From NCBI GenBank assembly GCA_051362555.1, contig CM120648.1:4460587-4524586 (forward strand): DNA of 64,000 bases. Direction: 5' to 3'. Below, piece by piece: positions 26,001-64,000 of the stretch (the first letter of the stretch is position 1; every line of letters starts with the position of its first letter). The notes beneath the pieces were generated by a model that saw only the letters and a list, made by a program, of their open reading frames with translations, ran no database searches and had not been told where the DNA came from. The translations under genes were made by a program, and so were the position numbers. The DNA comes from Lingula anatina (Eukaryota > Animalia > Brachiopoda).

Positions 26001-26741
26001 AAATTATACATGTAAGAATACCATCATTTTTTTAAACAAATTAATCACTGGGCTAGCTAAAACAGAGCTACATGTTTCTTAGCAACTGATACCAGCATTT
26101 TGTTTTAAATAATCTCTTATTCATATTTTACAATTCTCTCTGACCTTTGGCTTTTCCCAGCCCTCACACTCTGGTGATTCAGTCTCAGAAACAGGTCACC
26201 AGATGTCCCCAGTGTATGCCCAAGACGAACCTCGCTTACAGTTGTGCTGAGCAGACGGGCCCCTGGTGTCAAAACAGTGTCCCCACTATTCACAACTGAG
26301 CAAGCTTGGTATGCATGTTTTACCTCTTCACTAGTAATTTCATCTGGAAAATAAAAAAAAAGAATTTTTTCACAGTGCTCATGTCTAATTAAAAAATCAT
26401 TGCAAGAATTACTCTTACTGTTTGTATTAATTCTATGTGAAATATAACTCTATAGCTGTTTCCCATATCACAATTTGCAGTTTACTTTGAAAAAGTCTCT
26501 ATATATGATTCTAATGAAATTAATTTATCAACTCTGACAATTTTTTTTAATAGTGCCAACTGACCTTGGGTGGGAGCCAACTGTTTGGATTTTCCAGGAG
26601 TGCTTGGTAGGAAGCCAAAGTTGCAGTAGAAGTAGGGAAACTCTGTGGATAAATGACAATGAAAATATATATGAAGAGGTGGATGCATATCTAATCTACA
26701 GTTAAGGAGAAAATGCTGTACCTACGTAAATTGTTTTTTGG

Positions 26742-26828
<87 letters not shown>

Positions 26829-32800: not shown

Positions 32801-35516
32801 CACCTGAGCATTCTCCAGAAACCAGCAGCACATCATCGATGGCAATGTCCCCCTTCCAACCGTCTCCAACCACCCCCTCAAACAGAATCTGAGAAGGCAA
32901 AATCTTTGGAGTTAGCACGTAGATACCAGGGTTAACAGTGATCCTGGCCCGCCGCCATTCATTGCCTTGGTCCCCATGCATGCCCCAGATCTCAGTGGCC
33001 AAGCTCTCGAATGGTTTCAGAAAGATGCGAAGAGATCCAACCTGGCTGCCGTGCATGTGGTACCAGAACTGCAGGCAGGAGATGGTGTAGATAGTTGGTG
33101 GTAACATGAATCTGAATAGCAGAACAATACTAAGGTAAAACACAGAACAATATTCTATAGGACAGGATAAATTATTCAAATTTACGTCTCTAGGGGTAAT
33201 TTCTTAAGGTACTAATTTCAGTACAGTACATGGATGACAAACTAGACCAGTCAATCTGACCAAAATATATATACTCAGCAGACAGTGTTATTCAGATACC
33301 GTACACAAGTAACATGGTACTACTTATAAATAACAAGAATGATACCAAGAAATCCAATAATTAACATATTATTATGCTGGCTTCATGTTAACATGCATGC
33401 AGACGTGTACAGAATATACATTATCAGGGTACATGTACAGGTACATGAGGATCAGCCGGAACTGGGAATGAAGCCTTATGAATCAGTTTCAATCTAGAAA
33501 ATATGTTCTAAAAGAAAAAGTTCAATTTATATAGTTTAGTAAGCCTAGACATAATGAAATATCTGCTAAGACAATGAGCAGCACATGCAGGTAAGGGCAT
33601 TTACGCACCCCCTCCCCCTTAAATGAATTCATATAATGCGTGTCAACATTAGCCATCTTACAAACACAATCAATTTACCTGGCATTCTCCCTCACCACTC
33701 GTGGACTGCTGGCTTCCAAATAGAAGTAGATGTCCCCCACGTCCCCCGTGGTGTGGCCTTGGGCTGGACCAGTCATCTTCGAGGTTGTCTCGCCATTATG
33801 TAATGTCCAGTCGAAATTGTCGTCCTGGGACTGAATTATGCCACACTTGCTGGCCCCCTCACCAGTGCCGAAGTTACAGTGGAACAGCTGCACTTTACCT
33901 AGAATTCAGTTGTTTGTGAAGTTGTGTTGTTGGTGATAAATAAAAGTATAATGCTTGACCCTTATAGTATAATAATTATTATATAAATATACTAGTGGAT
34001 TGGGTCCTTGGTCAGGATCGTTTATGGATGGGGGGGGGGGGGGGAGTGGGCATGAGCAGAGAAAATGTGCTTAAGTCCTACTTGCTAAAGCATGGGTTTT
34101 GCAAAGTCCGCCATCACTCTGAGAACTAGCTTCCGGATTTCCTGTGATTCAGTTTTTTCAGAATTTTTTGGAAGGGTAATGTACGTAACTCTTGGTATTT
34201 GTCTGTTTAAAAAATGATTTAAAAAACAGGTGGTTTATGTACTTTATTATTAACAAAGTGTCTCAAATCTTAAAATATTTAAAATTAAAGTATTCAGAAG
34301 CGATAAGTTATACAGCAGCCTAGCATTTACTTACCTGCGTCAGTTTCATCACCAGGAGCAGGACCACCTGAAAGGAAAAAAGGAGAAATAATGAACTAAT
34401 TTTACTTATTTGACTAAGAATTTAATTACCAAGGTTACCAGGTCACATTTTTTTTTTTTTTTTGTGAAACTGGGGCCAGTTTACACAGTATAGACCTCTT
34501 ATTATCATGGACTTGATGGAGAAAATATCATTATTCAGTGCAAATTAACTGTTACTTCTTTCAACACAATAAACATTACTCGAAGAAAAAAAATTCAAGG
34601 TAGCATCATTTACATGTATTTCGTGATATTCAAATACAGTTGTACGGGTCTGCTAGGTCAAGCAAAATCATCACCTCAGCAGCTACAGAGTGCTTTATTT
34701 AGAAGCCCGAATTTCAAAGGCGATTCTTTTTTTTAGTCACCGTAGTTGACCAAATTTGAGAAATGAAACAGAAATGGCCTTGGTCAATTTTCAGAAATTT
34801 TGAGTCAGTGTGGACCTTTTCCGACCAAACGAGCGGTTCTTTCAATTTCCTCCCTTTCCAAATTTTATGTGTTTGTTGTTACAGTTCAATACGTCAAAAT
34901 GCAATTTATTAAAAACGTTTTACCTTGGAGGCAGCGTTTTTGCTCAAAGACAATTTACCTTTCACGGCAGCGAGCAGGAAGGCAAGCCACCTCAAATAAT
35001 GCAGCATCTTTCCCGTCACTATCGTAGCGAGTCTGAGTTCCTGAATCAGCCAAAGTAAATGGCAAATACTCAAGAAGCACAGGCAAGGAACTGACAGTTG
35101 AGTCGCTCCCCAGTCGGTCGGCAAAGACAGGTGAAGATGGACAAAAAACCCGACTGCAACTCGGATACACCAGGAAAAATCGCCCTGCTACTACCGCCGA
35201 CACGTTGGTCGGTAAGCGGTCACACTCAGGGCGAAGGGGAAAGCAAGAATGACCGTGTCGTAGTGTATCCGATCTCAGAAGATTACCTCTCAGTCATGTG
35301 ACGTTGGAGTGAGGCATTCTTGAATTCTTGGAATCGGTTTCGTTCTGCTTCGCAGATTTCTTCACAAAAGGTGAGGAGTAGTGATAATGCTGTTTGGCGA
35401 GGTCATTTTGAGAACGGTTCTTATAAGACTGAAAATTATGATCGGTTCTCATAAGAATTAAAAAGAATATATCAAAGAAACATTATACAAAATGACATTC
35501 GTGTTTAAATCATTGT

Positions 35517-39467: not shown

Positions 39468-41204
39468 GATACCCGGGGCTTACGCTATGAAAATAAAAAT
39501 GTCAAGGGAATGGGCAAGCGTCCCAGGCACAATACCACTATGGTATAATTCGGACATTAAAATTAGTATTGAGTCTGTTTTCATTGCTTCCTAACACAGA
39601 CAATAAAGGTATCAGGGATATTCTTGTCACTCAGGGAAAATTATTTAATAAAAACGCGCTTGAAATAAAATATAATGTGAGAGTCTCCACCTTGTGATTC
39701 AACATTGCGTACAGTTCAGTTAAGTCATTTTTGCTTTTGAAACAGTTTAAAAAAGAAAAGGTCATTACTACAATTACTCCATAGGATGCATTTCATTTTA
39801 AATGGCTGACGTTAAATGAAAAAGAAATAGATACGTCTGCAATGTTTAAAAATAATTGTCATTCCTTCTGGTGTTTGTAAATGGAATCACATATTATTCC
39901 GGAAGGAGGACGTTTGCTTACTGAGGAAATCTTTGGGACTTGCTTTATAACCCCTCAGGATACACCACTGCAATGCACGGCTTCAATTTCGAATCATATA
40001 TAGAGTACTGCCTTTAGGTGTTTACCTAAAAGAACGACATTCAAAATTATGACATTTACAGGCTTTGCGGAAAAGATATGAAGATCTCCTTCTTGTGTTC
40101 ACGCAGTGTGATAGGCCGCATTCACATCAAGAAGAGCCGAGGCTCAACAAAGCAGAGACCTAAATATGGCAGACGTACATGAAAGGAAAACCGCATAATC
40201 TTTTAATAGTCTCTAAGCCTCTCACACGCCTCCCCACGCGTCATCCCTGCAGGGGTACAGTCATTAATCTCGGCTCCATTCGCCCGGAAGCTACCTGAGA
40301 AATATTTAGTGTGCATGCTCATCAATTAAATGCGAGGTGAAGAAAGCATATGGCGGTTGGAGACGATCGAAGGAAAAAAGCTTTTCTGTTCTATTATCTT
40401 TCTAAACAGAGACAAAAAAGTAATGAATTGGCCAGAGGAGCAGCAATGAACTATCTATATACGGAGATAATGTTAGCTGACCCAAGACCAATGAGCATGC
40501 GCACTTATTGTACCACCAGCGTTAGCGCTGGCGGTACACATGGTTTTAGTCCCGTCCGGTCCGTTCCGCCGGCTCCTGCGGCTCCGTGGCCATTCTACCG
40601 TTACCGCTTCTCTTCCTAGACGGTAAGGGCCCCCATACCCATCTCTTGGATTTAGGTCACCTATAACCTCAACTCGTTCCACGTAAAATTTGGGCTTTGT
40701 CGGTATTGGGGTCTAGGTGTGGCACTCATTGCAATGCACCTTTGTCTAAAAATGGCAAAATTAAATGCTAATTATCTACCCTACGGAAGGAATTATGGGA
40801 AAAATTTCTACAGAAGGCTTTCCAAAAGTCATATGTGTAGATTTCAAATATGCCCTTGGATTTGACCTTTGACCTTTATTTCAAGGTCAAACGGGCAAAA
40901 ATTTTCAAAAAAATGAATTTTTTTACGAAAAAAAATTTATTTGCGCTGTTATTCAGATACCACACAGACTTAACCAATAATATTATTGGAAAATGTTACC
41001 CTTCAGGTCATCTTTCATCTGTGTGAATTTGGGGTCAATCGGTGCATTTTCACGGGTGTAGCGGCCATAAGATACCGAAACTGTAAACTGTCTCTAATTC
41101 GGGAACAGTTAATGCTAGAGACCCATTCTTTTTTGCATTTTGTAGAGCATGTAAAGCCCAACACTGGTGGTGGTCTCCGTTTTTTTGTATTCCATACGGT
41201 TTTC

Positions 41205-44200
41205 GAGTTACGCTGTATCAAAAAGTACATATTGGTGGTGAAAGCAAAATGTGCAGTACGGTAATGGATAATAAATTTTGAACTCTGGAAAAATAAAACA
41301 TAAGGCTTGGCAAAGGCTTAAGCAGACAACTTGTGGTCAAAAATGACATTATTTAATCAAATTTGAACTTCTGGAACTTCAGAGCACCTCCCATTTCAAG
41401 AATTTTGACCAAAATGACCTTTTCTTTATTTTAATTAATTTTTTCTGTAGGAAATTTTTGGCACATTAAGGTAACTCCGAAATTATAACATTTAGTCCCT
41501 TATATCTCCAAAACTGGCAGAGATAGGTCCAAAGTTACTATTGAAGTTGAATAGGAAGTCATATACTGGCAATCTTACTGTGACCTTGAAATTGACCTTT
41601 GACCTACTTTTCACCATAAATTGAACTTTGCAAATTTTGCTTCCCTTTTATCTCTAAAACTGGCAGAGATAGGTCCATAGTTACTATTGAAGTTGAATAG
41701 GAAGTCATATACTGGCAATCTTAATGTGACCTTAAAATTGACCTTTGACCTACTTTTCACCATGAACTGAACTTTGGAAATTTTGCTTCCCTTTTATCTC
41801 CAAAACTAGCAGAGATAGGTCCATAGTTACTATTGAAGTTGAATAGGAAGTCATATACTGGCAATCTAAATGTGACCTTAAAATTGACCTTTGACCTACT
41901 TTTCACCATGAACTGAACTCTGCTAATTTCTTTCTCTTTTAACTCCAAACCTGGCAGAGATAGGTCCATAGTTACTATTGAAGTTGAATAGGAAGTCATA
42001 TACTGGCAATCTAAATGTGACCTTGAAATTGACCTTTGACCTATTTTTTATCATGAATTGAACTTTGCAAATTTTGGTTCTCTTTTATCTCCAAAACTGG
42101 CAGAGATAGGTCCATAGTTACTATTGAACTTGAATAGGAAGTCATATACTGGCAATCTTTCTGTGACCTACTTTTCATCATGAACTGAACTTTGCAAATT
42201 TTGCTTCCCTTTTATCTCCAAAGTTACGCTGTATCAAAAAGTACATTTTGGTGGTTAAAGCAAAATGTGCAGTACAGTAATGGATAATAAATTTTGAACT
42301 CCGGTAAAATAAAACATAAGGCTTGGCAAAGCAGGCAACTTGTGGTCAAAAATGACATTATTTCATCAAATTAGAACATCTGGAACTTCAGAGCACCTCC
42401 CATTTCAAGAATTTTGACCAAAATGACCTTTTCTTTATTTTAATTAATTTTTTCCGTAGGAAATTTATGGGACATTATGGTAACTCCAAAATTATAACAT
42501 TTAGTCCCTTATATCTCCAAAACTGGCAGAGATAAGTCCATAGTTATTATTGAAGTTGAATAGGAAGTCATGTACTGGCAATCTTACTGTGACCTTGAAA
42601 TTGACCTTTGACCTACTTTTCACCATGAACTGAACTTTGCAAATTTTGCTTCCATTTTATCTCCAAAGTTACGCTGTATCAAAAAGTACATTTTGGTGGT
42701 TAAAGCAAAATGTGCAGTACGGTAATGGATAATAAATTTTGAACTCCGGAAAAATAAAACATAAGGCTTGGCAAAGCAGGCAACTTGTGGTCAAAAATGA
42801 CATTATTTCATCAAATTTGAACATCTGGAACTTCAGAGCACCTCCCATTTCAAGAATTTTGACCAAAATGACCTTTTATTTTAATTAATTTTTTCTGTAG
42901 GAAATTTATGGCACATTATGGTAACTCCAAAATTATAACATTTAGGCTTCGTTCACATGCAATGTCTATTTTCTCAATTCTATTTTCTATTTGTGGCATG
43001 TGTTGTGATCATGGTCTGTGCCCTGAATATCCCGCGGCGTAATTTCTGGCAGCACGAGCCAGTTACTATAAGTTACTTTAAGTAACTGGCTCGCGCTGCC
43101 AGTAATTACGCGGCGGGATATTCAGGGCATAGACTGTGATCATAAGATAGCGCGAATAGAAAATAGATTTTTAGAAAATAGACATTCCATGTGAACGAAG
43201 CCTTAGTCCCTTATATCTCCAAAACTGGCAGAGATAGGTCCATAGTTACTAATGAAGTTGAATAGGAAGTCATATACTGGCAACCTTACTGTGACCTTGA
43301 AATTGACCTTTGACCTACTTTTCACCATGAACTGAACTTTGGAAATTTTGCTTCCCTTTTATCTCCAAAACTGGCAGAGATAGGTCCATAGTTACTATTG
43401 AAGTTGAATAGGAAGTCATATACTGGCAATCTAAATGTGACTCTAAAATTGACCTTTGACCTACTTTTCACCATGAACTGAACTTTGCAAATTTTGCTTC
43501 CCTTTTATCTCCAAAGTTACGCTGTATCAAAAAGTACATATTGGTGGTTAAAGCAAAATGTGCAGTACAGTAATGGATAATAAATTTTGAACTCCGGAAT
43601 AAGGCTTGGCAAAGCAGACAACTTGTGGTCAAAAATAACATTATTTCATCAAATTAGAACATCTGGAACTTCAGAGCACCTCCCATTTCAAGAATTTTTA
43701 CCAAAATGACCTTTTCTTTATTTTAATTAATTTTTTCTGTAGGAAATTTATGGCACATTATGGTAACTCCAAAATTATAACATTTAGTCCCTTATATCTC
43801 CAAAACTGGCAGAGATAGGTCCTTAGTTACTAAACTTGAATGGAAAGTCATATACTGGCAATCTAAATGTGACTTTAAAATTGACCTTTGACCTACTTTT
43901 CACCATGAGTTGAACTTTGCAAATTTTGGTTCCCTTTTATCTCCAAAACTGGCAGAGATAGGTCCATAGTTACTTTTGAACTTGGATAGGAAGTCATATA
44001 CTGGCAATCTAAATGTGACCTTGAAATTGACTTTTGACCCACTTTTTATCATGAATTGAACTTTGCAAATTTTGGTTCCCTTTTATTTCCAAAACTAGCG
44101 AGATAGGTCCATAGTTACTATTGAAGTTGAATAGGAAGTCATATGCTGGCAATCTAAGTGTGACCTTGAAATTGACCTTTGACCTACCTTATGATGAACT

Positions 44201-44215
44201 TAACTTTGATTGTAC
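41205..44215. repeat. 146-bp satellite array with a higher-order unit (about 295-bp spacer plus 1-5 monomers)
   Basis: Monomer starts at 41505, 41651 and 41797 (period 146). The spacer TTACGCTGTATCAAAAAGTAC recurs near 41208, 42224, 42669 and 43517. Confidence 0.92.
42945..43202. mobile_element. 258-bp palindromic Tourist/Harbinger-type MITE inserted in the satellite
   Basis: GGCTTCGTTCACATG...CATGTGAACGAAGCC forms a near end-to-end hairpin; TTA TSD at 42942-42944 and 43203-43205. Sister units show the empty site ATAACATTTAGTCCC. Confidence 0.93.
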
Positions 44216-45269
44216 CATTTTAAGTTATATATATTTTTTGAGTATTTTGAAAATTCTTGTTGATTGCATTTTTATAGCTTGTCAAGCATAAGACTGGTGG
44301 CTGTGTCCCTTATTTTGTGTATGTGGGGGTCTATACGAATGCGCTTGCTCCAGCTGGTGGTACAATATTCGGAGGCGGTATCGCCTCTCTGATCCTCTAG
44401 TTTTTTCTTAGGTACAGTAGCTTCCGGGTGAATGGAGCCAAGATTTAATCGACTGTACCCCCGCAAGGATGATGCCTGGGGAGGTGTGTGAGAGGCGGAG
44501 AGACTATTAAAAGATTAGACGGTTTTCCTTTCATGTACGTCCGCCATATTTAGGTCTCGGCTTTGTTGAGCCTCGGCTCTTCTCGATGTGAATGTGGCCA
44601 TAGTGCGCATCCCCCTTGGAATAAACTTACTGTTATCTACTTGGGTCTCAAATTAACGACTATAATATCTTATTTGAAACAAAATGTATGGTGAAAACCA
44701 AAACCTTTAATTAATTTTTGTCATGTATGTGAAACAATACATTTACAAATGCCTGAAAGGAAAAAAAAAAAAACTAGTGTTCAAGGCCTCTTAAGTCACA
44801 TCAAATTTATGTATGAATGTTCTTGCTATGCGTCATGGTTTATACACGCTGTTATGTAACTTTACATATACATATGAGATGAATGTCCTAAACTTATATA
44901 ATTTTGAACGCTTAATTCAAGTGTGGGCTTGAAATAGGACATTACGTTTTCGTCTAACTATATGGATAACGCGATCCAAAGATTCCACGGTTCGTGTCAG
45001 ATTTACGTAAGGTCGCGCAAAGAAAACACAAGTCCACATAATGACCAGTTTAATGGTTTATTGGTTGACGCTCTCTAACTACATCTTCTACATGAAGTCT
45101 CCAACTATCAAGCCGTCTCGCCTGGCTCTGTCGAGCGGTCACCTTTGAGTCTTCTCCAGTCTGAACCACCGATATTAATTCTGAACGTCTTTTATACAAT
45201 ATTTCTTATCAGTGGTGGATTCTGTGCTGCATTATTTATATTCAAATTGCACACGTCCACTTAAGTTAC

Positions 45270-48200
45270 ATGATTACAGGTAAGGTCATAAACTAGTCGA
45301 GTGCACAAGCAATCGACTCTAATCAAATTAATTAAAACGTCTGGTAATTATATTTGTGAACTCTACAACGTACGATAATTTTGTTGAGCAGTAGGTATAG
45401 TGTTAAGTGTTAAGGTTTTTCGATAGTAGCTTTCATTGTATTATTATTATTATTATTATAATCATCAAATAATTTTGTACTGTAAACCTGTAAAGGAGCA
45501 AACGATTGAATATGAGAGATAGTCACATGCACTGTGAGAAAAGATACAACGTCCATATCCTCCTTGCTAGAATCTGATTGATGGTTGTCTCCATAAAATG
45601 AAGTAAACAATTAACAAAATAAACACCAATATTTTTACCATTGCAGCGCAAAACAGATCTCTCCTGATTGCTTGGGAATCAGAAATGGATTCATCTCCAA
45701 ATTTTGATTTTCTTGGGTCACAATCGCAAAGCTACATGGAAGCAGCCTACCCATTGTCTTCAGACCAAACAAGAGCTTAGGATTCAAAACGGGGAAGAGA
45801 TAAATCACTTACATCACAGAAACACACAGGGATTTCCTCCCCAACTCAGTCGGTGAAAAATGAAGTGACAAATAACAGGAAATCGGCCACTCATGCATGT
45901 TTAACAAGCTTTCAGACATCAGATGAAAGATGCTATATAAAGCTTCAATCTGGTTTCACGTTATCAGAGACTGTAGTGAATCCGTCAGTTGAGGATAAAT
46001 TGCCACAAGCAAAGCTCGTCAGTGATGAAAGTTTCACCAAGACCACTTCTGTGCATTCCAATTTTACATCTACCTATAACCACGGAGCAGTGAGGCTGCC
46101 AAGTATCAGTCAAAAACACCAGAGCCTTTTCAGAGATGTACAAACCCAAAATTTAGACCAATCCAAGGAACAAGAGTTGACCCCAAGAGTTGTGCCTAGA
46201 TACTGGCAAAGTTGTAAGAGTTTTTTCAGAGATATAAAAATTAAAAACATAGACCAATCAGAGAAACACCAGTTTTGCCCGGGGCAAAATCTGATGCCGC
46301 CCCCTGACACTTTTTCAAGATGTAGAGCACCAAAAAGACCCAGGAGTGAGAGATGTGTCACCATAGAAGGCATAAGCAGAAACGAAATGATGGATTATAA
46401 AAAACTTGACACAGATAGCATGGCCAGTGAGAATAAAAATGAAGCAGTGATCAAAGGTCGTATGTATACCACTTTGGCATCTGGTGTGGCTCGAGCACAA
46501 TCAATCCCGACACAAGAAAGCAACAGTGGTACTGTGGTTCAAAGGACAGTCTTGTCTCCAACCAGCAAAGAAAGAGAGGTTCAGGCTTTGACCAGTAAGA
46601 CTGAGAATAAGGAAATGGGCCTGAATCATCAGACTGATGCCACACATATACAAGCCATGTGGAAAAATGTTGATTCTGCAAATCCAACCACAGCAAATGT
46701 CTCCTATTCCTCAAACCACGACAATGCATCAGAAGTACAGTCAGCCATTAAGAAAGGATCGAGGTTATTAAAAACAAGTGTGAGTCCGTCAGTGGATGGC
46801 AAACTGCCAATTACAGGATGCTATAGAAAGCGCCAATATGGTTCCACATTGTCAGAAACTGTAATGAGTCTGTCAGGCGAGGACAAATTGCCAATGAGTA
46901 GGTTTGTCAGTGATGAGAGTTTAACCAAGGCCACTTCTATGCATTCCAGTAAAATATCAACCAGTAGCAATGGACAAATGAGACCAAGCATCACTCAAAA
47001 GTATTCAAGTATTTTTAGAGATGTTAAGAATGAAAATTTAGACCAATCCATGGAACAAGAGTTGAACCCAAGAGTTGTGCCTAGATACTGGCAAAGTTGT
47101 AAGAGTCTTTTCAGAGATATAAAAATTAAAAACATAGACCAATCAGAGAAACACCAGTTTTGCCCGGGGCAAAATCTGATGCCGCCTCCTGACACTTTTT
47201 CAAGATGTAGAGCACCAAAAAGACCCAGGAGTGAGAGATGTGTCACCATAGAGGGCATAAGCAGAAACGAAATGATGGATTATAAAAAACTTGACACAGA
47301 TAGCATGGCCAGCGAGAATAAAAATGAAGCAGTGATCAAAGGTCGTATGTATACCACTTTGGCATCTGGTGTGGCTCAAGCACAATCAATCCCGACACAA
47401 GAAAGCAACAGTGGTACTGTGGTTCAAAGGACAGTCTTGTCTCCAACCAGCAAAGAAAGAGAGGTTCAGGCTTTGACCAGTAAGACTGAGAATAAGGAAA
47501 TGGGCCTGAATCATCAGACTGATGCCACACAAATACAAGCCATGTGGAAAAATGTTGATTCTGCAAATCCAACCACAGCAAATGTCTCCTATTCCTCAAA
47601 CCACGACAATGCATCAGAAGTAGAGTCAACCATTGAGAAAGGATCGAGGTTATTAGAAACAAGTGTGAGTCCGTCAGTGGATGGTAAACTGCCAATTACA
47701 GGATGCTATAGAAAGCGCCAATATGGTTCCACATTGTCAGAAACTGTAATGAGTCTGTCAGGCGAGGACAAATTGCCAGAGAGTAGGTTTGTCAGTGATG
47801 AGAGTTTAACCAAGGCCACTTCTATGCATTCCAGTGAAATATCAACCAGTAGCAATGGACAAATGAGACCAAGCGTCACTCAAAAGTATTCAAGTATTTT
47901 TAGAGATGTAAAGAATGAAAATTTAGACCAATCCAAGGAACACAAGTTTTGCTTTAGGCAAAATCTAATGCCGCCTCCTGACACCTTTTTAGGAAGTTTT
48001 CTAAGAAGAAGTAGTGTACCAAGAAGACCCAGGACTGAGAGACGTGTCACGATAGCAGGTACAGGCAAAAGAGAAACTGTGGATTATATGTATAGCACAG
48101 ACTGTGAGAATGGTAACAAAGCTCTGATTCACGCTAAAGATGACACTTTCAACATGACGCCATATGATGATGGAGTTTTCCCCATTGATCTGGACCAGGG

Positions 48201-50132
48201 GCTACATACATGGCAAGTAGGTATTCAGATGTCCAGTTTTCCGAGAAAAAATGATGAAACACTCTTAAAGGGGGGTAATTCACTATTGCCGAAACCAACA
48301 CCATCAATGAATAGGCCTGGTATGCAAAATTATATAACTGCCTCTCAAGGCCAAAACTATTTGCATTTTCGAAGAACCTATTCACTTACACGGCGAAGGG
48401 AAAATTGGAGAGAATCTCCGTCAGCATTAACATCAACTTCCAAGGTTCCACAGTCAAGAGCCAATAGCAGTCAAAATACCAATGAAGATTGTGACACAAA
48501 ATTAAGTGCAATTTGTGAAGACAAAAAAAATTCGCTGTTTGAATTCGCTTCTGATAAGCAATCAGCATCATGCTCTTCAGCAACTATGTCTACTCCAGAA
48601 TGCTACACAACGGAAGATCACCTAACTACCAAATTTAACAGAGATAACAAGATTCCCCTCTTTCAAAGAACATTTCATTTAAAAGATCACAAAAAAGAAA
48701 GCATAATGAAAACAGTGACTAGAAAAAACAATTCTAGTTATGATGGCGATGTTCCTGATTGCATGACAGAGGCAGAACATACCTTGTCCGAATTTGGCAA
48801 TCCATTGACTACAGTGTCTGGTAAGTTTTTTGGACAGTATTTGTGCTAAAAAGTAAAAATGGCACATTTTTTAATGTTATTTTATTATCAAAAGCAGGGT
48901 TCTGCCCAGAGCGCGACATTGCGACGTTGTCGCCCAAAAATTGAAAATGTCGCCAAAAAATTCCTAGAGATGCGCCCTCGGGCGCACTCGTAAAAGGGGA
49001 CCGAAGTATCAAATAAACATACCCAGTACGCTTATTAATTTTTCAAAATTCTTCCACCCGGTATGTTTATTAAATACCTATCGTACCGGTGAGAAATTAT
49101 ACAAGTACAAGTCAAGTTTTTTATTTTCTTAAATTGAAGTGTAATGAGAAGAAATACCGGTGCAGCTACTGTTCGACATACAGCACTGGAAAGTAGGTCA
49201 AGTGAAAGTCGCTCTCTGAACACAACAATACATTGCGTCATCTGATTTCAGTTCCTATAAATAGACGTGCTTTCCCTTCAACAGTGACAACTACTCATGT
49301 ATATCGATCGAATGATGTCACGTCGCAAGGTGATAGGATCATATTTATAGCTAACGAGGTCATTTCAAGGGGGGCGTCTCGATAGTCCGAAGGTTCATTG
49401 GTCCGAAGGTTCATTGGTCCGAAAATTCGTAAATTTTTCATCAGATTTTCAACAAAAAGGTTCATTGGTCCGAAGGTTCATTAGTCCGAAAATTAAAGGT
49501 CCATTGGTCCGAAGGTTCATTAGTCCGAAGGTTCGATAGTCCGAAGGTTCATTAGTCCGAAGGTTCGATAGTCCGAAACATTTTAAGATGTTCTTCGATT
49601 TTAAGAATTATAATTACAAACGGAATCTAAGGGTGCGTTCCCAACGAAACTATCATTCTACGTAGATTGATCCAACTCCACCAGGATTCTCACTGTATGC
49701 AATCAGATTAGCAATCCTGGAGCTGCTAGGGGGTGATTAACTTTCGTGTGAACTCAGCTTCTAGAATCTTTATCATTTCGTTTTGAGTGCGACCGAAACG
49801 CACGTGAAAATTATCCATATAGGTCGTATTGTTTCCGTGAACTACTCTTTACAATGTGGGGAAGTTTGGGGATATGCAATGGCTACCCTTTCCAACTCAT
49901 GAACACATATACATGTTTCACATGAAATATTGAATAAAGATTGGAACGCATAAAATGAGAGGACGCCTATAATGACATTTTCTTACGATGTCTTAAGATA
50001 CTATGATTAGAATTCAAATTCTTCTAACCTACACATTTCTTAAATTATGTAAAAGTTATAGAATAATTGCATTTCCAAACAAACTATGTTGTTGTTCGCA
50101 CAGCCCACTCCCCTCCCCTCCCCCCCCCCCCC

Positions 50133-52205: not shown

Positions 52206-54890
52206 CCTAATATATGTAATAAACTGCACAGTTTGGTTTATATGAGATTCTTCACTCTCCTGTTTTAGGTTATAGGCCATTATAATTTTTCTGGGGTCTG
52301 CAGAACAATATGTTGACCCCATCCAAATTAATTTATATAATAGTTTACTTATTTATACTTAGATATCAATTCTGAAAATGAAAGCGTGCTATCCAGTGAA
52401 CGAACATCACGCACAGCAGAGTATTCAGATGTTTCAGATCTTGATGATTTCAACTACAAGGGACTGGTTCTAATTCTAAACTATGTGAACTTTCCATCGG
52501 CACCACATCTTACACAGAGAGTTGGTGCAGAGCATGATGAGAGTGAGTTATCTGTCTTTTTCTGTTGCTTTGCTAGTTTTTAGATGACCCTGCTAGTAAT
52601 AGTATAAAGCAACATGGATACATTCTATGGCACTTGTATGTGTACATGTACACCTTTTTTAGTGGGAGCTGCTCTCTTTGTACATGACTGTATCATGATG
52701 GATTTTAACATTTTTGTTGAGAAGGTATGACATTGCTCAGATGACAAATTTTTCTGCATGGAACTTGTGATGTAATGATGTAACAATTAAGTCATATGGT
52801 CTCGAGTGTGAAGCGGAGTGATGTGATGTGGCATATGAGACATGGACTATTAATTTCGTAATAAATATTTTAATCTTTTATACATATATGTTGTTACAGT
52901 ACCATAGAACTATCTGTTTGCATGACAGCTTAACTGGCAAGGTGTACTGGGTTAACATTAAAATTACTCTGAAGCCATTTCTCATTTTAACTACCTCATA
53001 TTTCAGTTACATTATTTTTAAAAAATTCATATTGCTATAAAGATCCAAGCTTCTGGCTGGGGCATACAGGAAACATTGAAATAATAATGATAGTTAATAA
53101 TAAAAAACAATGTTTGAATACCAATTTCTTATAAATGGGATGTTAATTCAAAATGCATAGAATTTGGATAACTGATGTAGAAAGTAAAAAAAAAAAGTTT
53201 CAAGATTCATTAATATTACCAATACACCTGTATGTAATTGTTTTGAAATATAAGTTTGACGAGCAACCTCACAATTTGCTTTTCATTTTTGTTAACTGCC
53301 AGACGTATAAATGTACCAACAGAATGAACATGACACGTATGAGCATAACATGCATACGGTTGTACTTGGCATTTTTCAGGTAAGGTGAAGGACTTGTTTG
53401 ATTCACTAAGATTCAATGTTATTGTCCGAAAAGATCAGACTAAGGAAGAAACAATGGAAACAATACATGATCATTCACAACTAGACCACAGCAACTACCA
53501 AGCATTTATATGCTTCATATTTTCGCATGGCAGCAATGGAAACATTTACTGCTCTGATGGTGGTATATTGCCACTAAGTGACATATTTGCTCCATTTGAG
53601 TCTGCAAAGTGTCCCACACTCAAAGGTAAACCAAAGGCATTTTTTATACAGGCTTGTCTAGGATCACAGGTATTAGCAGGTATGTATATATTTGTACTTA
53701 TGCAAAGGGCATATATACATTTAATGAATATTTAACTAGATATCCATGTTTTAAACTGAAACATCAGAAATTTGCCAATATTAAGAATATGTATGCCACA
53801 CAGACCTGTAGCCAGCAATTTCAAAAGGAGGGTTCTTTTTCTGAAAAAATGGACCTTTTTCCACAAAAACTTCATGTACCTTTACGTCAAATTGTACCCA
53901 GAGTGGACCTTTTCCCAGCAAAAGGGGCGGTTCTTTCTAATCCCCCAACCCCCCCCTGGCTACGGGCCCGCTACATCTACTATATGGCTGCTGCTATGAG
54001 TTATGAAACAGTGTTTAATGTAATGTTTCTTTGTGAAATTGTACATAAAATTATATTAACTACTTACAAGATTACAGCATTGAATGTTAATATGATTTTA
54101 ATTATTACTTCATAAACATCACTTGGTACATAACCATGAATATTTATTAACAAAATACAATAAACTGAACATGCACAATATATTTATTAAATGAAATTTT
54201 AAAAAATGAACTTGCATGTAAAGGTATGATTTTTGCATCAAATTTAATTTCGTCCAGAATAAAAAGCAACTTTGTACCATTGTAAATGAAAGAACTTAGC
54301 TGTAAATGAAACATGATTAATTTAGATTAGCATCTGTCCTCTTGACATTTCAAAAGAAAATGTTGACATAAGGTACTTGTATTAAATGTATCTGATTGGT
54401 TTTATTCTATTTATAAACATTAAGAAAATGAAGACTTCGAAATATTCAAATGTGTACGGGATACCCTTAATCAAATGGATCTCTTATACTGATACATTAA
54501 CAAATAATTCTATGTTTAGGAACTTCAGATGCCTCACCATTTGCAGCAGAGTCTGAAGGAGTGGCCAAACCTAATCTGCCAGCATGTTCAGATGCTGATT
54601 TCCTGCTGTCCTATGCAACTCTGCCTGGGCATGCTGCAATTCGTACCGAAGAGGGTTCACCTTTTGTGACTTCCTTAGTTAAATACATAAATAAGTATTC
54701 AACTGGTGAAATGAGAAAAACATTATATGATATCGTGACCAGGGTGAACAAAAAGTTGGAAAGCATTACTGTCCGAGATGCATCAGGGATGCTAACATCA
54801 TACCGCCAAGTTTGTTCAGTTGTAGGGAATCTAAAGAAAGAGTTTTACTTGAGGGCATGCAAGTTGGTATCCCATGAGATGCATAACTAA
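45270..54890 (+). CDS. Caspase (peptidase C14A, caspase-8-like catalytic domain) with a very long repetitive N-terminus; exons 45270-45279, 45647-48820, 52363-52542, 53380-53679, 54520-54890; in-frame TAG at 45778-45780
   Basis: Motifs KGLVLILNYVNF...QRVGAEHD, FICFIFSHG, CPTLKGKPKAFFIQACLG, ADFLLSYATLPGHAAIRTEEGSPFV...RQV...LKKEFY. All introns are GT-AG, phase 1. The catalytic exons are certain; linkage to the large exon and the start codon are inferred. Confidence 0.85.
45945..48085 (+). repeat. 885-bp (295-aa) coding tandem repeat, about 2.4 copies
   Basis: Near-identical blocks offset by 885 bp (e.g. 46110/46995/47880); reading frame preserved. Confidence 0.95.
49370..51225. mobile_element. 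Foldback/MULE-like non-autonomous element with tandem-repeat TIRs
   Basis: Inverted arms built of a 16-bp repeat GTCCGAAGGTTCATT(G/A) at 49381-49577 and 51049-51214; termini GGGG.CGT..CGATAGTCCGAAGG; TSD (C)ATTTCAAG at 49362-49369 and 51226-51233. Confidence 0.88.
52147..52202. repeat. (AT)n microsatellite
   Basis: Directly visible. Confidence 0.95.
53801..53970 (-). mobile_element. Short MITE, inverted copy of 37197-37365
   Basis: CAGACCTGTAGCCAG...CTGGCTACGGGCCCG; the interior matches the reverse complement of 37197-37365. Confidence 0.8.
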
Positions 54891-56662: not shown

Positions 56663-57996
56663 TGTGGTGTTCAGTTTCTTGGCATTATATCCTGAATAAT
56701 ATATGATGATGTTTGATATATCATTGCTACAACCTGGCATTGAGAGAGCTAAGAAAGAAAAACTACATGAAAGATAATCTTTCATTTAAGCTGTTTAATT
56801 ATTCTTTAAGGTCTAAATTGGGGAATAGTTATCAACCTGCATTAAGGTGAAAGTTTGACACAAGTTGAAAATAATAACTTCAAGATATATAGTACAATAT
56901 ATGCATTTCCACCAAAAATTCCCTATTCTAAAATTAGAATGCTGAAGTTAACAACATTCTTTCTATTGTTTTGGTTTAGAAAATTACAATTACCATAGTC
57001 ATTAATTAAATGCAGTATAACTTCTGCATAAAGTTGTTAATTTTTTTCAAATGCTTATTAGCAGCATGTCACATGTAAGTAGCTTATACCTCAAAACAGT
57101 TAACAAAAAAGACTAGAAGTAAATAAGTACATAAATATAGTATGGTAATAGTTAAATAAAGTCAAACAAAATAGATTAATGATTATTGATTGATAATCTT
57201 CCCCCACACTGTGCCTTGCTATTTATACAATAAAATATTGTTGATTTGTGTTTCTGAAGTGTTACTAATACTTTGCTTTATGTCAAAAAGGACATTTTTG
57301 TGAATAACTAAATATAAAACCTGGAAAAGTAAAATATTGGAATAAGTTCTTAGATGCCTGCAACAAATTAAAAATGAATAAATCAAAATATATAACACAT
57401 ACATTTGCATATGGCAATTACCATAGGAGAACATAATAATAGTTTCTATTATATATATAATCGTGGTTAATTCATGGAATGAAGTATATAAATGTTAAAT
57501 GATGCCAAAAGAAGCATTTAATTGGTAAAAAATCTGTAAACAAATTTGTTATGAATAACAATAAAAGATATGCTGAATATTCTTATTAAATAATTACGTG
57601 CACCAAAAATATAGCACTTGACAACAACATATTTTGTTCTATGGCCACAAAGAACAAGACATACATGTCTACTGAATGCAATAGTACTACTATATGTTAT
57701 ATGGCAGACCTGGGATGGGGGGGGGGGGGGGGGGGAGGGGGGCACACAGTACCATGCCCTTTGAGGTTCTACTTTCTCCCCACCCCAAAGAAAAAAAATC
57801 ACATGAGCATTATTCCATCCCTGTGAAGACTGAGAATAGTTTTACCTGCTTCTCAATAGACTGGATAAAATCTCCAAGAGGGGGAGACAACATAGTGAAT
57901 TACACTAAACTGGAAGAAGTGTTAGTATTAAAAACCTTAAGCTATGTATGGCATTATCTTAATTAGAAAGATCTTAGCTTCCAGTTTACAAAATGT

Positions 57997-58899
57997 CTAT
58001 TCAGTACCAATTTCTTCAAGCTGTGGAATGTGTGGAAGATCCATAAGAGCTGATAAACTCTCCAACTTCTCATACAACATTTGCACCTAAAATGACACAA
58101 AAATATCACAAATATTTTTATATTTAAAAGTAATCAAAATCCATATTTGTATTTTTATATTGTTGTAAGATAAGAAATAAATTAAGCAAAAATGTTCATT
58201 AGCTTGGTAGTGAAAAAATGAAAATTATCAAACATAAGCCGAAAAACTTTCATTCAGTTAGGTTAAGGCCACCTACATGTAGCAGTCAGTGAATGTCAAC
58301 ATCTGCTCACATCAGTCTGATGAAGGCCTACGTCCAGGTTGGCCTTAAGCTTAAGGTATGAAAGTTTTTTTGGCTTGTGTTTGATAATTTTAATTTTATG
58401 AAGAAAAAATTTGTTCAATGACTTCAAATTTGATATGTGCATATAAAAACTTATGAATCATGTATTCATCATTTATTTCATATAAGACTATAGTTAGTCA
58501 CCTTTTCTTCTTCAGTTTTTTCTTCTTCTTGTTCTTCTTTTTCTTCTTCTTCAGGGGTTCCCTCTTTCTCCCCATCAGCACTATCACCCTCAGAGGGTTG
58601 AAATTTTGGCGTGTCTGAATCTACCTTTGACAACAAGGTTATCAAGTCATTTAACTCCTCTGACTTGACATCAAGACCCAGCAAAGTCATCACCTGCAAA
58701 TGTGATCATGCAAATTAATTAAAAATCACTGAATTACAAACAAAAGGGGCAAAAGACAAAAGGAACTAATAAATATGAAGAACAGGATTCAGATCTCTGA
58801 GTCCAATTTCGAGTTCCAACCTGGGACACAAAAATGCATATTGCAAATAATTCCTTGGTCCAGAAACGATAATGGACCTTAAAAAAATAAGAAAAAAAA

Positions 58900-58941
<42 letters not shown>

Positions 58942-61191
58942 TTTGAAGTTCTCCTTCTTTACTCTCCCCATCCTCTCCAAGAAATTGAAGATATACCCTG
59001 TTAAAATGCACATTATGAATTAATCAATGATATTGCAGATGGATGGCATACATTTCTATCCTTTTGATTGATATACCAATGTGCAAGAATGACCAACACA
59101 GCCGGGAAAAATAAATGAGGTATCATTGTCATCCCCCTCCTCGTTAGTATATGTCTGGCTTTGCCAATGGATACTCTGTACCTTAATTATGTAGAATTCA
59201 ACCCATGTCATCACATGTTGCAGTTGTGGCACCAATCCTTTGTCAATGGAAGCCAACACGTCTGCACAGGAAAGACATGCCAGTACACACAGGTCAACCT
59301 TAAACCAGAGACGAAAGTGAACATAAAAAAAATACATCAAATTCTAAACATTTTGAGTACTGTCCTGTTGACAAAAAATTAAAATGAAATAAATACATTA
59401 TTGAAACAAGTTTAGTTCAACTTGTAAAATTCTGGATAAAAGTTTTCTACTACAAATGCTGTGTACCAATTAAGTATTTCACATACATTCATCAAGGACT
59501 CAGGGGTGCCAGAAACATCTATTTTCTTCAGCTCCTGATGAGAAAGTGCAGCAATGGCCTGGGGCAGGAACACCATCATAGTGTTGTACATCTCTGGGGC
59601 AAACAGCAACCTTTCTTTATAGAGGGTCAGCAGAGCTCCTCGGGCCTGGAGGTGAATACAAGGCAGCAAAGCTGTCAAATGTACAGGCTTAAAGTATAAC
59701 ATAACAATGACAGTGCAGAAAATAATATCACATGATGCTTAACAACAGTAAATAAGATCATTCACTATTTTGTAAGATGTTCTTTTTTCTACCTGTTAAG
59801 ACAAGTTTCATTAAAAGTTGTTTCAGTGTTTTACATTTTCATATAAAAAATTCATATTTATCTGACACTTCAATTGATAGGCACTCAGTGTACATTACTT
59901 TAAATAGGCAGAGGAACAAACAAGCGAACAGACAAACTAGGCAAATTAAGGAGAACATGTGGAGCTATACTATATAGGTTTTCTCTTCAAGTACCTGTAT
60001 GTCAAGCCAACCCAGGTCCACAGAATCAGGAATTCGTGTCATGCAATCTGCAGGCCTGCTACAGCTTAGATACCTAGTGATGTGGTCAAACTGCCACAAG
60101 TTCTTTAAAAAAAAAGAAAGGAATTACTATAAAATGCTGTTTTTGTAATATAAAAGAGAGTAAACATTGAACACACAAAGGATGTATAACAGTCTAAAAG
60201 CACAAGGCAACACTGGCCACAATACGTATTTTGAATGAAAAAACATGCACAGTTAAAATGTAAGCAAGTGATATAAATATACCTGGTATATTGTATATTT
60301 ACCCTTATTGTCCTGGGCCCTCCAAAGTTATCTTCTTCCTCATGTGAATTGACACTGAAAGATGTTGCTTCTGGCTCCATTAATACATCACATCCCTTGG
60401 CAGGGCTGAAAGGACAAATATTCATTTTGTACTTGCACCAGTGCTACACAACTGTTCTACATGTTATAGTTTGTGTAAGAAAAAATAAACTCTTTCCTTT
60501 TGACATTCAAAAGCTTACAATGCATGTCAAACCTTAATACCTCAAAAACAAAGGTAATATACCCTGGCACATACATGTACCAGTACAAGATACATACTGG
60601 GTGTTAAAATTTCCAGAAAAACTTCTTTGCAATAAAATAAGGTACACTGTGTGCATTTTTATACATTTAAAGCCATATTAACCTTATAATAACTGCCACT
60701 GCCTGACACAATGGTTTACAGTACTCTATCAGTGGGTAAATAGGGAACTCTGGTGTCTCTTCTTTCCTCTGTCTCTCCCTAAGATATTTGGACATGAAGT
60801 AGGTGAAAAATCCGTGTCCAATCTTTTTATAATGTAAAGCTCTCTGCATGCCACTGCAGGCTGCTACAATATGTGTAGTTACTTTCCCTGTTGATTCTTG
60901 GAGGAGGCTTTCAGCTATTTGACCTGGGGAAAAATGTATGCCTAATTATATGTAATTCTTTAGTATGTATATTAATCAATGAATAATCTTACTAAATATA
61001 TGTCCCGTGCAGCATATAAATGAAAATATATCATGTCACCTACAAAACAGACTGACATACCCTACTGACATATTTAACTTAACCATGCTTTAACACTGCT
61101 AATTTCCTATAGCAATCTGGAGGCAATATATGGCTGACACATGTTGACTAAAATTTAATTTTTAAAATACAGATGACAATTTAAACTTATA

Positions 61192-61235
<44 letters not shown>

Positions 61236-63818
61236 CCCTGTAACTTACCTGCATAACAGCAGTCAGCTATGAAAAGGAAATGCTTGGCCTTGGTACCTTC
61301 AACACAGGCAACTATGTCTGAGATAGACAGAGCAGAATCTTGGACATTGGGAGTGAAATCTGCAGGTACCAGATATACCTAATAATAAATAATACTAATA
61401 TTCAGCTTATATATATATATGCAAAATATACAAAAATAAATATATAAAATTGGATTCTGTCAATTAAAAGTGATACAAAAGTGAAATAAAAATGAATCTG
61501 TAATAATAATTATAAATATTGTTAAGTTTAAGATGTGAAAATAAAATGATTAATAAAACCAGTATAAAAAATGTACCAGTATTAAAAAAATAATTCAAAT
61601 GAAGTATTTGGCAAAGTTTGGTACACTGTATCTCCTCATTTCATTCACAATTTTTCCTAGAAATATTTCATTGCACCTGTAGTGCTACCTGGCTAATCTC
61701 ACCTGTCCAGAGCGTTTCTTATCACAGTGACCGGAGAACTGGAACAGTAGTATTCCGTCCTCTGACACCTGCCCAGCTCTCCTCCGCAATGCCTCCTTTA
61801 TGGCAGCACAGGTTGGTATATCTGGGCAGTCAGTGGTCAGCAGGGTCATTTGAGCCTGAAAGGATTGTATTTAAAATGTTATATCAACTGGTCTAGGATT
61901 AAAATAAACATGGAATCAGAAACATTATTGCATATATTGTTACACTGTACACAACTAGAGGATCAGAGAGGCGATACCGCCTCCCGATATAGTACCACCA
62001 GCTGGAGCAAGCGCATTCATATGGACCCCTCCCCCCCCAAAAAAAAGAGACACCACCACCAGTCTTGTGCTTGACAAGCTCTATAAAATGCAATCAACAA
62101 GAATTCTCAAAATATGCAAAAAAAAAATATAACCAAAAATGGTACAATCAAAATTCAGTTCATCATAAAAAGAAGGTCAAAGGTCAATTTTAAGGTCACA
62201 GTAAATTGCCAGTATATGACTTCCTATTCAAGTTCAATAGAAACTATGGACCTATCTCTGCCAGTTTTGAAGATAAAAGGAAACCAAATTTTATAAAGTT
62301 CAATTCATGATGAAAAGTAGGTCAAAGGTCAATTTTTAGGTCACAGTAAATTGCCAGTATATGACTTCCTATTCAAATTCAATAGTAACTATGGGCGTAT
62401 CTTTGCCAGTTTTGAAAGTATAAGCATTAAAAAAGTTGCAAAGTTCAGTTTAAGGTGTAAAGTAGGTCAAAGGTCAATTTCAAGATCAAAGTAAGATTAC
62501 CAGTATATAACTTCCTATTCAACTTCAATAGTAACTATGGACCTATCTCTGCCAGGTATGGAGTTAAAAGGGAAATGAATTAGCAGAGTTCAGTTCATGA
62601 TAAAAAGTAGGTCAAAGGTCAATTTCAAGGTCACACTTAGATTGTCATTATATGACTTCCTATTCAACTTTAATAGTAACTATTGACCTATCTCTGCCAG
62701 TTTTGGAGATAAAAGGGAACCATATTTGCAAAGTTCAATTCATGATGAAAAGTAGGTCAAAGGTCAATTTCAAGGGCACACTCAGATTGCCAGTATATGA
62801 CTTCCTATTCAACTTTAATAGTAACTATTGACCTATCTCTGACAGTTTTGGAGATATAAGGGACTAAATGTTACAATTCTGAGTTACAATAATGTGCCAC
62901 CACAATGTATTTTTTAATACAGCATAACACGAAAACCGTATGAAATACAAAAAAAAAACAGAGACCACCAACAATGTTGGGCAAAGGGTAACACTTTCCT
63001 ATAATATTATTGGTTAAGTCTGTGTAGTGTCTGAATAACAGCGCAAATAATTTTTTTTTTGTAAAAAATTTCGTTTTTTTGAAAATTTTGGCCCGTTTGA
63101 CCTTGAAATAAAGGTCAAAGGTCATATCCAAGGGCATATTTGAAATCTACACGTATGACTTTTGGAAAGCCGTCTGTAGAAATTTTTCCCATAATTCCTT
63201 CCGTAGGGTAGATAATTGGCATTGAATTTTCAAAAATTTTGACAAGGGTGCATTTCAACGAGCGTCACACCCATGTCAATGCACCGACTGAGACAAAAAA
63301 ACCTGGGGGTTCAAGTTGAGGTTATATGTGACCTAAATCCAAGAGATGGGGACAGTGGTCCTTGCAGTCTAGGAGGAGAAACGGTAATGGTGACTTGTAT
63401 CCGGCGCCAGTACGCGGAGCTGGCAGAGCTCACGGAGCTGGCGGAGCCAGCAGAGCCAACGGAGCCGGACGAGACGGGTCAGGACTTAAACCATGAGTAC
63501 CACCAGCGTACACGCTGGTGGTACTAATTATAAAATAACTTCTGTGTGAAATATCAAGAAAAGTACTTGTGAAAGAGTTTTAATTGTAAAACAAGAACAA
63601 CTTTTGTTGAAAAGGGAGGGAATACGTAGCCTTCATACTTATAAATTCACCTATGTTGTTCTCAATATTACATTTTACTGAAATACTGTACAAGTAGGCT
63701 GTTACTAATACCTCCAAAAATCCATAATGGTCTTGCAGCACTCCCTTTATCACCTTGGCATCATTGTTGGCTGACTGTCCTACATGGTTACTGCCCAATT
63801 TTAACTGCTCACCAACAC
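57997..63818 (-). CDS. Metacaspase/orthocaspase-like peptidase C14 protein with an unknown helical, acidic C-terminal half (5'-partial, about 466 aa visible); exons 63818-63712, 61855-61703, 61378-61249, 60923-60683, 60405-60303, 60102-59995, 59645-59487, 59298-59182, 58693-58502, 58086-57997
   Basis: Spliced product: GVGEQLKLGSNHVGQSANNDAKVIKGVLQDHYGFLE/AQMTLLTTDCPDIPTCAAIKEALRRRAGQVSEDGILLFQFSGHCDKKRSGQ/VYLVPADFTPNVQDSALSISDIVACVEGTKAKHFLFIADCCYAG/QIAESLLQESTGKVTTHIVAACSGMQRALHYKKIGHGFFTYFMSKYL... Nine GT-AG introns, all phases compatible, no internal stops. Confidence 0.9.
61953..63527 (+). mobile_element. Second, shorter copy of the satellite-bearing Helentron/HINE-like element, intronic in the metacaspase-like gene
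   Basis: Same ends as 40506-44402 in the opposite orientation; about five 146-bp monomers (62150-62860); terminal hairpin AGTACCACCAGCG-TACA-CGCTGGTGGTACT at 63496-63525. Confidence 0.8.
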
Positions 63819-64000
63819 CTAGGACATGAATTAATTATAACTTTCTAATAAAAAAATCCATATACATGTACATGAATTTCAGACACGTGATCCATATTAA
63901 TATGTAATACTTGTATTACTGTGTGTTGTTTGCATACAGGGCATGTTTGTGTGTGTGTGTGTGTGTCTGTTTGTGTGTGTATGTAAGTACCTGTCTACAG

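Follow-up and report, generated by a model that had tools for sequence, protein, structure and literature searches.

Metacaspases and metacaspase-like proteases are described as absent from animals in general reviews (PMC10896300 and PMC5756287, section 4, in the parts available). Bdelloid rotifers are a published exception, where a metacaspase gained by transfer, along with numerous divergent C14 proteins, is described in the accessible part of PMC11258130. Type 2 paracaspases are confined to non-bilaterians according to the available portions of PMC5978004 and 10.1101/046789. Here, a stretch of 64,000 nucleotides from the brachiopod Lingula anatina (GCA_051362555.1, contig CM120648.1, positions 4,460,587 to 4,524,586), designated as the window, was analysed. 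On its minus strand, at 57997-63818, the window carries a spliced gene for a metacaspase-like C14 protease, which very probably represents an old animal metacaspase-like family. The original prediction, made from the letters of the window, had called metacaspases generally absent from animals; this agrees with the general reviews but not with the bdelloid report. The ancient animal family is apparently undescribed: no description of it was found in the literature searched, which was mostly open-access, or in the available parts of PMC7836458, PMC8195603, PMC10959488, PMC13303787, PMC3501461, PMC3734836, PMC11521996, and 10.64898/2026.01.21.700432.

The best sequence and structure matches of the protein were metacaspases (C14B: AtMC4, 6w8r/6w8s; MC9, 8a53; Yca1, 4f6o; TbMCA2, 4af8), with which it shares a helix-1 Asp, an Asp two residues before the catalytic Cys, a YGF-type loop, F-S-G-H, and LVPxD. 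Unlike metacaspases, it has no extra strands, no DGxDE calcium loop, no third acid in the S1 pocket, DCCY instead of DxCH, an additional helical C-terminal domain, and an animal host. The nearest sequences outside the family were bacterial metacaspase-like proteases or orthocaspases (MaOC1, NF047832), which share DCCYAG, the short post-Cys loop, GHGxFT, and the lack of a calcium loop; they differ in a catalytic identity of at most about 22-39%, and their proteins have neither the helical domain nor a Met-Gly start. Like bdelloid rotifer C14 proteins, this is a metacaspase-type gene in an animal genome, but the bdelloid genes are lineage-specific gains from fungi or bacteria in the part of PMC11258130 available, whereas the present family spans protostomes and deuterostomes. 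Features that the original prediction did not include are the helical domain at the C-terminus, Met-Gly at the N-terminus, DxxD motifs, a core of six strands, the missing third S1 acid, and a neighbouring caspase gene.

Gene structure and transcription

Joining of ten minus-strand exons gave 466 codons to the stop, and all nine introns had GT-AG ends; their sizes in transcript order were 1856, 324, 325, 277, 200, 349, 188, 488, and 415 bases. Nine of the ten exons had a single open frame, and the phases chained. A search with exon 4 found the RefSeq protein XP_013416943.1 ("uncharacterized protein LOC106178350"), which has 509 residues, carries a PF00656 tag, and aligned with the join without gaps (432/466 identities). 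The predicted ten-exon C14 protease gene was thereby borne out, although none of the ten exons gave a Pfam C14 match on its own. Residues are numbered after XP_013416943.1 (label P0001), which adds 43 N-terminal residues beginning MGNEKS that lie outside the window. The window DNA and the RefSeq protein probably come from different populations or species.

Exon 1 in the window (63712-63818, residues 44-79) encodes the end of strand 1, helix 1, and the S1 residue Asp63 (63762-63760). Exon 2 (61703-61855, residues 80-130) encodes the FSGH motif with the catalytic His122, and exon 3 (61249-61378, residues 131-174) encodes LVPADF, the second S1 residue Asp169 (61264-61262), and the catalytic Cys171. 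The His codon (CAC, 61729-61727) and the Cys codon (TGT, 61258-61256) lay where they had been placed from the letters. The "GVG" motif noted earlier was also present, but its first Gly codon was split by the upstream intron. Exon 4 (60683-60923, residues 174-254) encodes the short post-Cys helix, strand 5 with AACS (60864-60853), and GHGFFTY (60819-60799). Exon 5 (60303-60405, residues 254-288) encodes strand 6 and an acidic disordered linker with EEED-N (60341-60327). The family-specific helical domain begins in exon 6 (59995-60102, residues 289-324) and continues through exon 7 (59487-59645, residues 325-377) and exon 8 (59182-59298, residues 378-416, with the conserved Tyr413). Exon 9 (58502-58693, residues 417-480) holds the end of this domain and an acidic tail with a candidate caspase site, DSAD-G (58585-58571); exon 10 (57997-58086, residues 481-509) holds a C-terminal helix and the stop codon.

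Four RNA runs were aligned to 57500-61900, and a further alignment was made over 63530-63940. Reads covered every exon within 57500-61900, and six introns (415, 488, 349, 200, 277, and 324 bases) were cleanly skipped with canonical ends. At the exon 7-8 junction, a 217-base skip with 23 differing letters was seen, which would correspond to the 188-base intron extended by an exon end that has diverged. At the exon 1-2 junction, 46 loose read ends ran into exon 2 in three of the four runs, and 46 loose read ends at exon 1 continued into the upstream exon of RefSeq. The exon 3-4 junction was absent from the read joints listed and rests on the RefSeq model. Read depth in 63530-63940 was restricted to exon 1 (63712-63821). 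The reads thus supported eight of the nine predicted junctions and one more 5' exon; together with RefSeq they place at least one further coding exon beyond the window end, as had been expected from the missing 5' exons.

In two runs, the first mates over the exons were nearly all on the plus strand, which indicates minus-strand RNA in stranded libraries. The reads were mostly 88-95% alike to the window; their source was therefore a related population or species other than the sequenced individual. Among 45 of the exon read differences, 22 were silent, 23 changed a residue, and none made a stop, a ratio that is only a rough sign of purifying selection, as 171 more differences fall outside this count.

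Fold and classification

The protein matched PF00656 at 35 bits, above the cut-off of 21.4, in the HMMER check proposed with the original prediction. The predicted structure had a mean predicted local distance difference test score (pLDDT) of 85.5 and a predicted template modelling score of 0.85; the linker (272-283) had pLDDT below 50. His122 and Cys171 followed strands 114-120 and 163-169, and Z scores of 20-23 to C14 structures showed the fold of clan CD, family C14. The model matched AtMC4 [Z 23.2, root-mean-square deviation (rmsd) 2.3, 210 aligned], AtMC9 (Z 22.9), MALT1 (Z 20.5, rmsd 2.9, 204 aligned), GSU0716 (Z 20.5), legumain (Z 20.2, rmsd 2.5, 195 aligned), and caspase-8 (Z 20.0), and a wide search agreed. 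The structure thus favours metacaspases by a small margin. A profile of 119 family sequences gave 13 matches in the PDB to E 10. Ten were metacaspases (E 7.6e-11 to 7.1e-4), and the other three were a CHAT protein, GSU0716, and Raptor; no caspase or MALT1 was among the 13.

Caspases have SHG, QACxG, and a basic S1 pocket, with Arg on helix 1 and loop 5; the present protein has SGH, DCCY, and Asp at both S1 positions. MALT1 has an N-terminal death domain and Ig domains, whereas here 30 residues precede the C14 domain and the C-terminus is all-helical. With regard to legumain, which has a signal peptide and an Arg-His S1, XP_013416943.1 had no PF01650 match and has Asp63 in S1; a weak Pfam C13 match was found in 26 of the 119 members. 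The calcium-loop (acidic-loop) pattern generally known from metacaspases was found after the His in none of the 119 family sequences (median His-Pro135 spacing 13), as had been predicted for this gene. In the predicted structure, the core had six strands, and 17 residues with one helix lay between Cys171 and strand 189-194; the family median spacing from the Cys to position 196 was 27 residues. In the available part of PMC4357240, the defining feature of metacaspases is an eight-stranded sheet, in which a pair of additional strands is placed between strands 4 and 5. With six core strands in the model and no match to the calcium-loop pattern, the protein falls outside the canonical metacaspases; a calcium-independent metacaspase, AtMC9, is described in the accessible part of PMC5756287.

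The Cys motif of the family was DCCY/F, with Tyr in 76, Phe in 19, and His in 8 of 116 sequences after the Cys; DxCH and DxCR are the metacaspase and paracaspase motifs in section 4 of PMC5756287. Metacaspases cut after Arg or Lys as monomers, and paracaspases dimerise through strand 6. A p20 domain without the metacaspase-type p10 calcium loop and with an extra C-terminal domain corresponds to the metacaspase-like/orthocaspase definition, as given in the parts of PMC5756287 and PMC3734836 available. The best NCBIfam model was the bacterial EACC1-associated caspase, with the family at 47-70 bits and below its cut-off of 140. The pocket is metacaspase-like and the core paracaspase/orthocaspase-like, and the protein is a member of neither named type.

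Family, distribution, and phylogeny

A profile of XP_013416943.1 and one homologue was scanned with HMMER against 1.84 billion representative proteins, giving 9402 matches to E 0.001 and 57 to 1e-30. Of the best 150 of the 9402 matches, 118 were sorted to the family and 32 were bacterial-type; sorting used an N-terminal motif together with how the catalytic and the C-terminal part scored against profiles, and the family set comprised about 120 sequences. Homologue searches seeded by words lacked sensitivity (1, 2, and 2 matches). Species names were sought for 10 members, which gave Owenia fusiformis, Branchiostoma lanceolatum, and Ptychodera flava; a member from Lineus longissimus was added by a later search. 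With Lingula, orthologues are known in five bilaterian phyla. Against the family profile, 113 family domains scored at least 158 bits, 67 bacterial-type domains 29-97, and the caspase encoded next to the gene 3.4. Together with the PDB matches, these scores agree with the original reading of a genuine animal gene that is metacaspase-like and unlike a caspase or MALT1.

In the IQ-TREE of 56 catalytic domains, 34 family rows were split from 22 bacterial-type rows (support 100/99). The named bilaterians and member P0014 grouped together (93/86), with the pairs Owenia and Lineus (96/94) and Branchiostoma and Ptychodera (96/73); the placement of Lingula inside this group was weakly supported. In a FastTree of 180 rows, the family lay on one side (support 79), and two long rows, identical to each other, lay next to the root. 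The 56-row tree and a 43-row tree were built without long branches. All trees were unrooted, and the family lay on one side relative to the 20-67 bacterial-type rows sampled. One true caspase was included; it formed a 3.1-long branch among the bacterial rows and was little informative.

The profile of the C-terminal domain matched Lineus (E 2e-11). It found no such domain in 4005 frames of 70 prokaryotic, metagenomic, or viral loci and 32 bacterial-type proteins (best E 0.49). Pattern-seeded scans gave no full-length member in 43 metagenome loci, 21 GTDB loci, or viral contigs (0 and 6 loci), and the plasmids gave 8 weak matches without a full-length member; these are weak negatives. In an Atlas search, the whole protein returned bacterial C14 clusters only, and the helical region nothing above 0.77.

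Since orthologues occur in five phyla and the helical domain is found in the family only, among the sequences examined, the gene likely predates the protostome-deuterostome split and would already have been carried by the latest ancestor that the two groups share. The orthologues in four more phyla, which group with the Lingula gene, also speak against acquisition by the Lingula lineage, one of two origins first proposed; any transfer must predate the split. The other proposal, a patchily retained gene, was upheld. The absence of vertebrates, insects, and nematodes among the few named matches may point to loss in these groups. The family would provide a living animal reference for the origin of caspases and paracaspases from basic-specific ancestors.

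A clade of ten members (P0059, P0069, P0073, P0083, P0084, P0091, P0100, P0101, P0123, and P0126; FastTree support 99) lacked the catalytic His, Cys, or both in all members and mostly kept the helical domain, as in a pseudo-enzyme branch.

Active site and predicted specificity

Asp63 and Asp169 aligned with Asp95 and Asp211 of TbMCA2 and with Asp365 and Asp462 of MALT1, which are S1 positions in the available part of PMC4357240. Both aspartates claimed for S1 were therefore found in the gene. Within the family, the His was kept in 93/111 sequences, the Cys in 102/116, Asp63 in 74/102, and Asp169 in 109/116; the dyad was intact in 92/111 and both Asp were present in 69/102. Lingula and the four other named bilaterians keep His and Cys. 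From the two acidic S1 residues, Arg/Lys activity is predicted with reasonable confidence. The specificity stated at the outset is likely on this ground, but is less sure than stated, because the third S1 acid is missing.

Helical domain, N-terminus, and DxxD motifs

The C-terminal helical domain was restricted to the family among the sequences examined and has its own conserved residues (a Trp, Ser354, and Tyr413). In the fold searches, the matches listed were taken up by the catalytic domain, and none among them linked the helical domain to LSAM, the death-domain-like prodomain of legumain. A Met-Gly start was present in 49 of 94 complete N-termini and in none of 32 bacterial-type matches; 37 of the 94 began MGxxxS/T, the myristoylation consensus. 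Members with Met-Gly are likely myristoylated, to judge from their sequences. Alignments of residues 460-509 to prolegumain and caspase chains reached 497-505, and this tail (pLDDT below 50) may lie near the catalytic domain.

DxxD-G/S/A occurred in 32 of 103 linkers (shuffles 4.8, standard deviation 2.1, maximum 12 in 1000) and in 20 of 71 tails after the helical domain (shuffles 3.4, maximum 10). It was not enriched in the folded domains (6/89 with 13.1 expected, and 4/94 with 4.8 expected). DxxE-G/S/A was not enriched in the linker (5 vs 4.9), and DxxD before other residues lay within the shuffle range (28 vs 20.3, maximum 31). The DxxD excess persisted in 20 subsets below 35% identity (5-11 vs 0.8-1.5), and the motif was present in 1 of 24 bacterial-type segments. 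The commonest forms were DETDS, DETDG, DEVDG, and DQTDA. The caspase-3/7 consensus is a DxxD-type site with Thr/Val at P2 and Glu/Gln at P3; the looser D/ExxD matches had Thr/Val at P2 in 34/52 and Glu/Gln at P3 in 28/52. Sites were found on both sides of the helical domain in Branchiostoma, Ptychodera, and Lineus, and in the tail of Owenia. These patterns make regulation of the protein by caspase cleavage somewhat more plausible than its absence.

Proposed model and alternative explanations

A model that combines these features is put forward tentatively: the protein would be a cytosolic, membrane-tethered Arg/Lys zymogen that is uncapped by effector caspases. Gly2 would be myristoylated and anchor the protein to the membrane. 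The two acidic S1 residues would select a basic P1, though perhaps less strictly than MALT1 does, as the third acid is missing. The helical domain and tail may hold the enzyme shut, by analogy with the activation peptide and LSAM domain of prolegumain. Caspase-3/7-like enzymes would cut the DxxD sites, since the acidic pocket of the protein would itself be unable to cut after Asp, and the freed six-stranded domain would be active without calcium, possibly as a dimer. Another protease is likely the cutter because the acidic pocket would not cut after Asp and because members without the dyad keep the motif. That cleavage activates rather than inactivates is possible but is the more doubtful part. 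A wider reading, which is rather unlikely though worth stating, is that this family, as a third C14 line of animals next to caspases and paracaspases, is a myristoylated, calcium-independent Arg/Lys protease from which executioner caspases remove the helical cap, forming a caspase-to-metacaspase relay at membranes that vertebrates, insects, and nematodes have lost. Caspase cleavage at the DxxD sites, if it occurs, would link the two protease types directly, and amphioxus would be a practical model.

Several observations weigh against this model. The proposed cap over the active site is drawn by analogy. The linker site of Lingula is the degenerate EEED-N, where relatives have DETD-A, DEVD-A, and DVVD-G, although the tail DSAD-G is kept. 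The strict motif is missing in 71/103 linkers and 51/71 tails, and the motif counts share ancestry. The looser motif is kept in 9 of 15 dyad-less and 36 of 82 dyad-intact members, so that cleavage may have a purpose other than activating the protease. All four residues (His, Cys, and the two Asp) are retained in only 57/102, and about one in six members (19/111) lacks the dyad, pointing to non-catalytic roles. Position 204, which we take to match MALT1 Glu500 by its motif, is His in Lingula and Ser, Val, Ala, or Thr in most members. The tree was built without eukaryotic metacaspases or MALT1, and the caspase neighbourhood of the gene may be chance.

The dyad-less members, the motif kept in more than half of them, and the conserved residues of the helical domain would also suit a protein that serves chiefly as a scaffold at the membrane or as a protease with constitutive low activity, in which a caspase cut inactivates or frees an active helical domain. 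Membrane-bound metacaspases with non-proteolytic roles have been published (PMC10896300, in the part available), yet the dyad is intact in most members, including Lingula and the four other named bilaterians, and this explanation is considered unlikely. If instead the acidic motifs are not caspase sites, they could serve self-processing, as in prolegumain and MaOC1, or act as an inhibitory pseudo-substrate or an ion-binding loop. The order of catalytic domain, flexible linker, and helical cap does parallel prolegumain (C13; PMC4357240, in the part available), and the legumain structure match, the weak C13 matches, and the missing third S1 acid fit as well. However, the motif needs Asp at both P4 and P1 and a small P1', DxxE and other DxxD forms are not enriched, dyad-less members keep the motif, and two S1 Asp would repel an Asp substrate. 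Unlike prolegumain, with which identity is 10-11%, the family has a metacaspase-type acidic S1 and no signal peptide, many members starting with Met-Gly; readings of this kind are improbable.

A divergent paracaspase (type 2 or MALT1-like) that is activated as a dimer and was counted in earlier surveys would also be an animal protein with six core strands, an uncut short post-Cys loop, and two S1 Asp at the MALT1 positions, and the MALT1 structure aligned well (Z 20.5). The PDB search to E 10 gave no MALT1, and the protein has DCCY/F rather than DxCR, no equivalent of Glu500, and no death or Ig domain. Type 2 paracaspases, moreover, are lone domains of non-metazoans, early-branching animals, and cnidarians (PMC5978004, in the part available), whereas this family is two-domain and bilaterian; the paracaspase reading is judged quite improbable. 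Recent bacterial transfer into Lingula or contamination could appeal to the bacterial-type nearest sequences outside the family and to the bacterial best NCBIfam model. Against it stand nine introns, the host transposon, and spliced reads, the same features by which contamination had been argued against from the outset, now with RNA support. Given that the orthologues from four other phyla pair up as the animal tree would have it, and that the C-terminal domain is in none of the 70 prokaryotic, metagenomic, and viral loci fetched, recent transfer into Lingula or contamination is extremely improbable.

Neighbouring genes and other features of the window

The host transposon predicted inside the gene was confirmed. 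It is a non-autonomous element in intron 1 (61989-63526), a host repeat with inverted ends (about 61992 and 63524) and a 145-base tandem array. The other copy, at 40510-44363, has an internal inversion, duplicated arrays, and tandem units of 145-146 bases; both copies are gene-less.

The next gene encodes a true caspase on the plus strand (about 52362-54890), with at least three exons (about 52362-52542, 53380-53679, and 54520-54890) and the motifs SHG and QACLG. It is convergent (tail to tail) with the metacaspase-like gene and lies 3.1 kb from its stop. Its best PDB matches were caspase-8 (E 4e-22) and caspase-3 (E 6e-8), and as a control, one of its exons matched 181 PDB sequences to E 0.01. 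An origin of the metacaspase-like gene as a tandem duplicate of this caspase was ruled out (best BLAST E 3.6).

On the minus strand, 20227-33203 contained IgGFc-binding domain exons (E 9e-26) together with three or more MAM domains, which probably belong to at least one large secreted protein. On the plus strand, 45781-48849 was a Ser/Thr-rich open frame of 1022 codons, which is duplicated internally over a long stretch and matched no Pfam family above the cut-off. A direct duplication of about 4.7 kb was found between 1371-6046 and 12574-17281 (86-90% identity); within the first duplicate, a minus-strand frame at 5415-5759 weakly matched VERL_C (E 4e-5).

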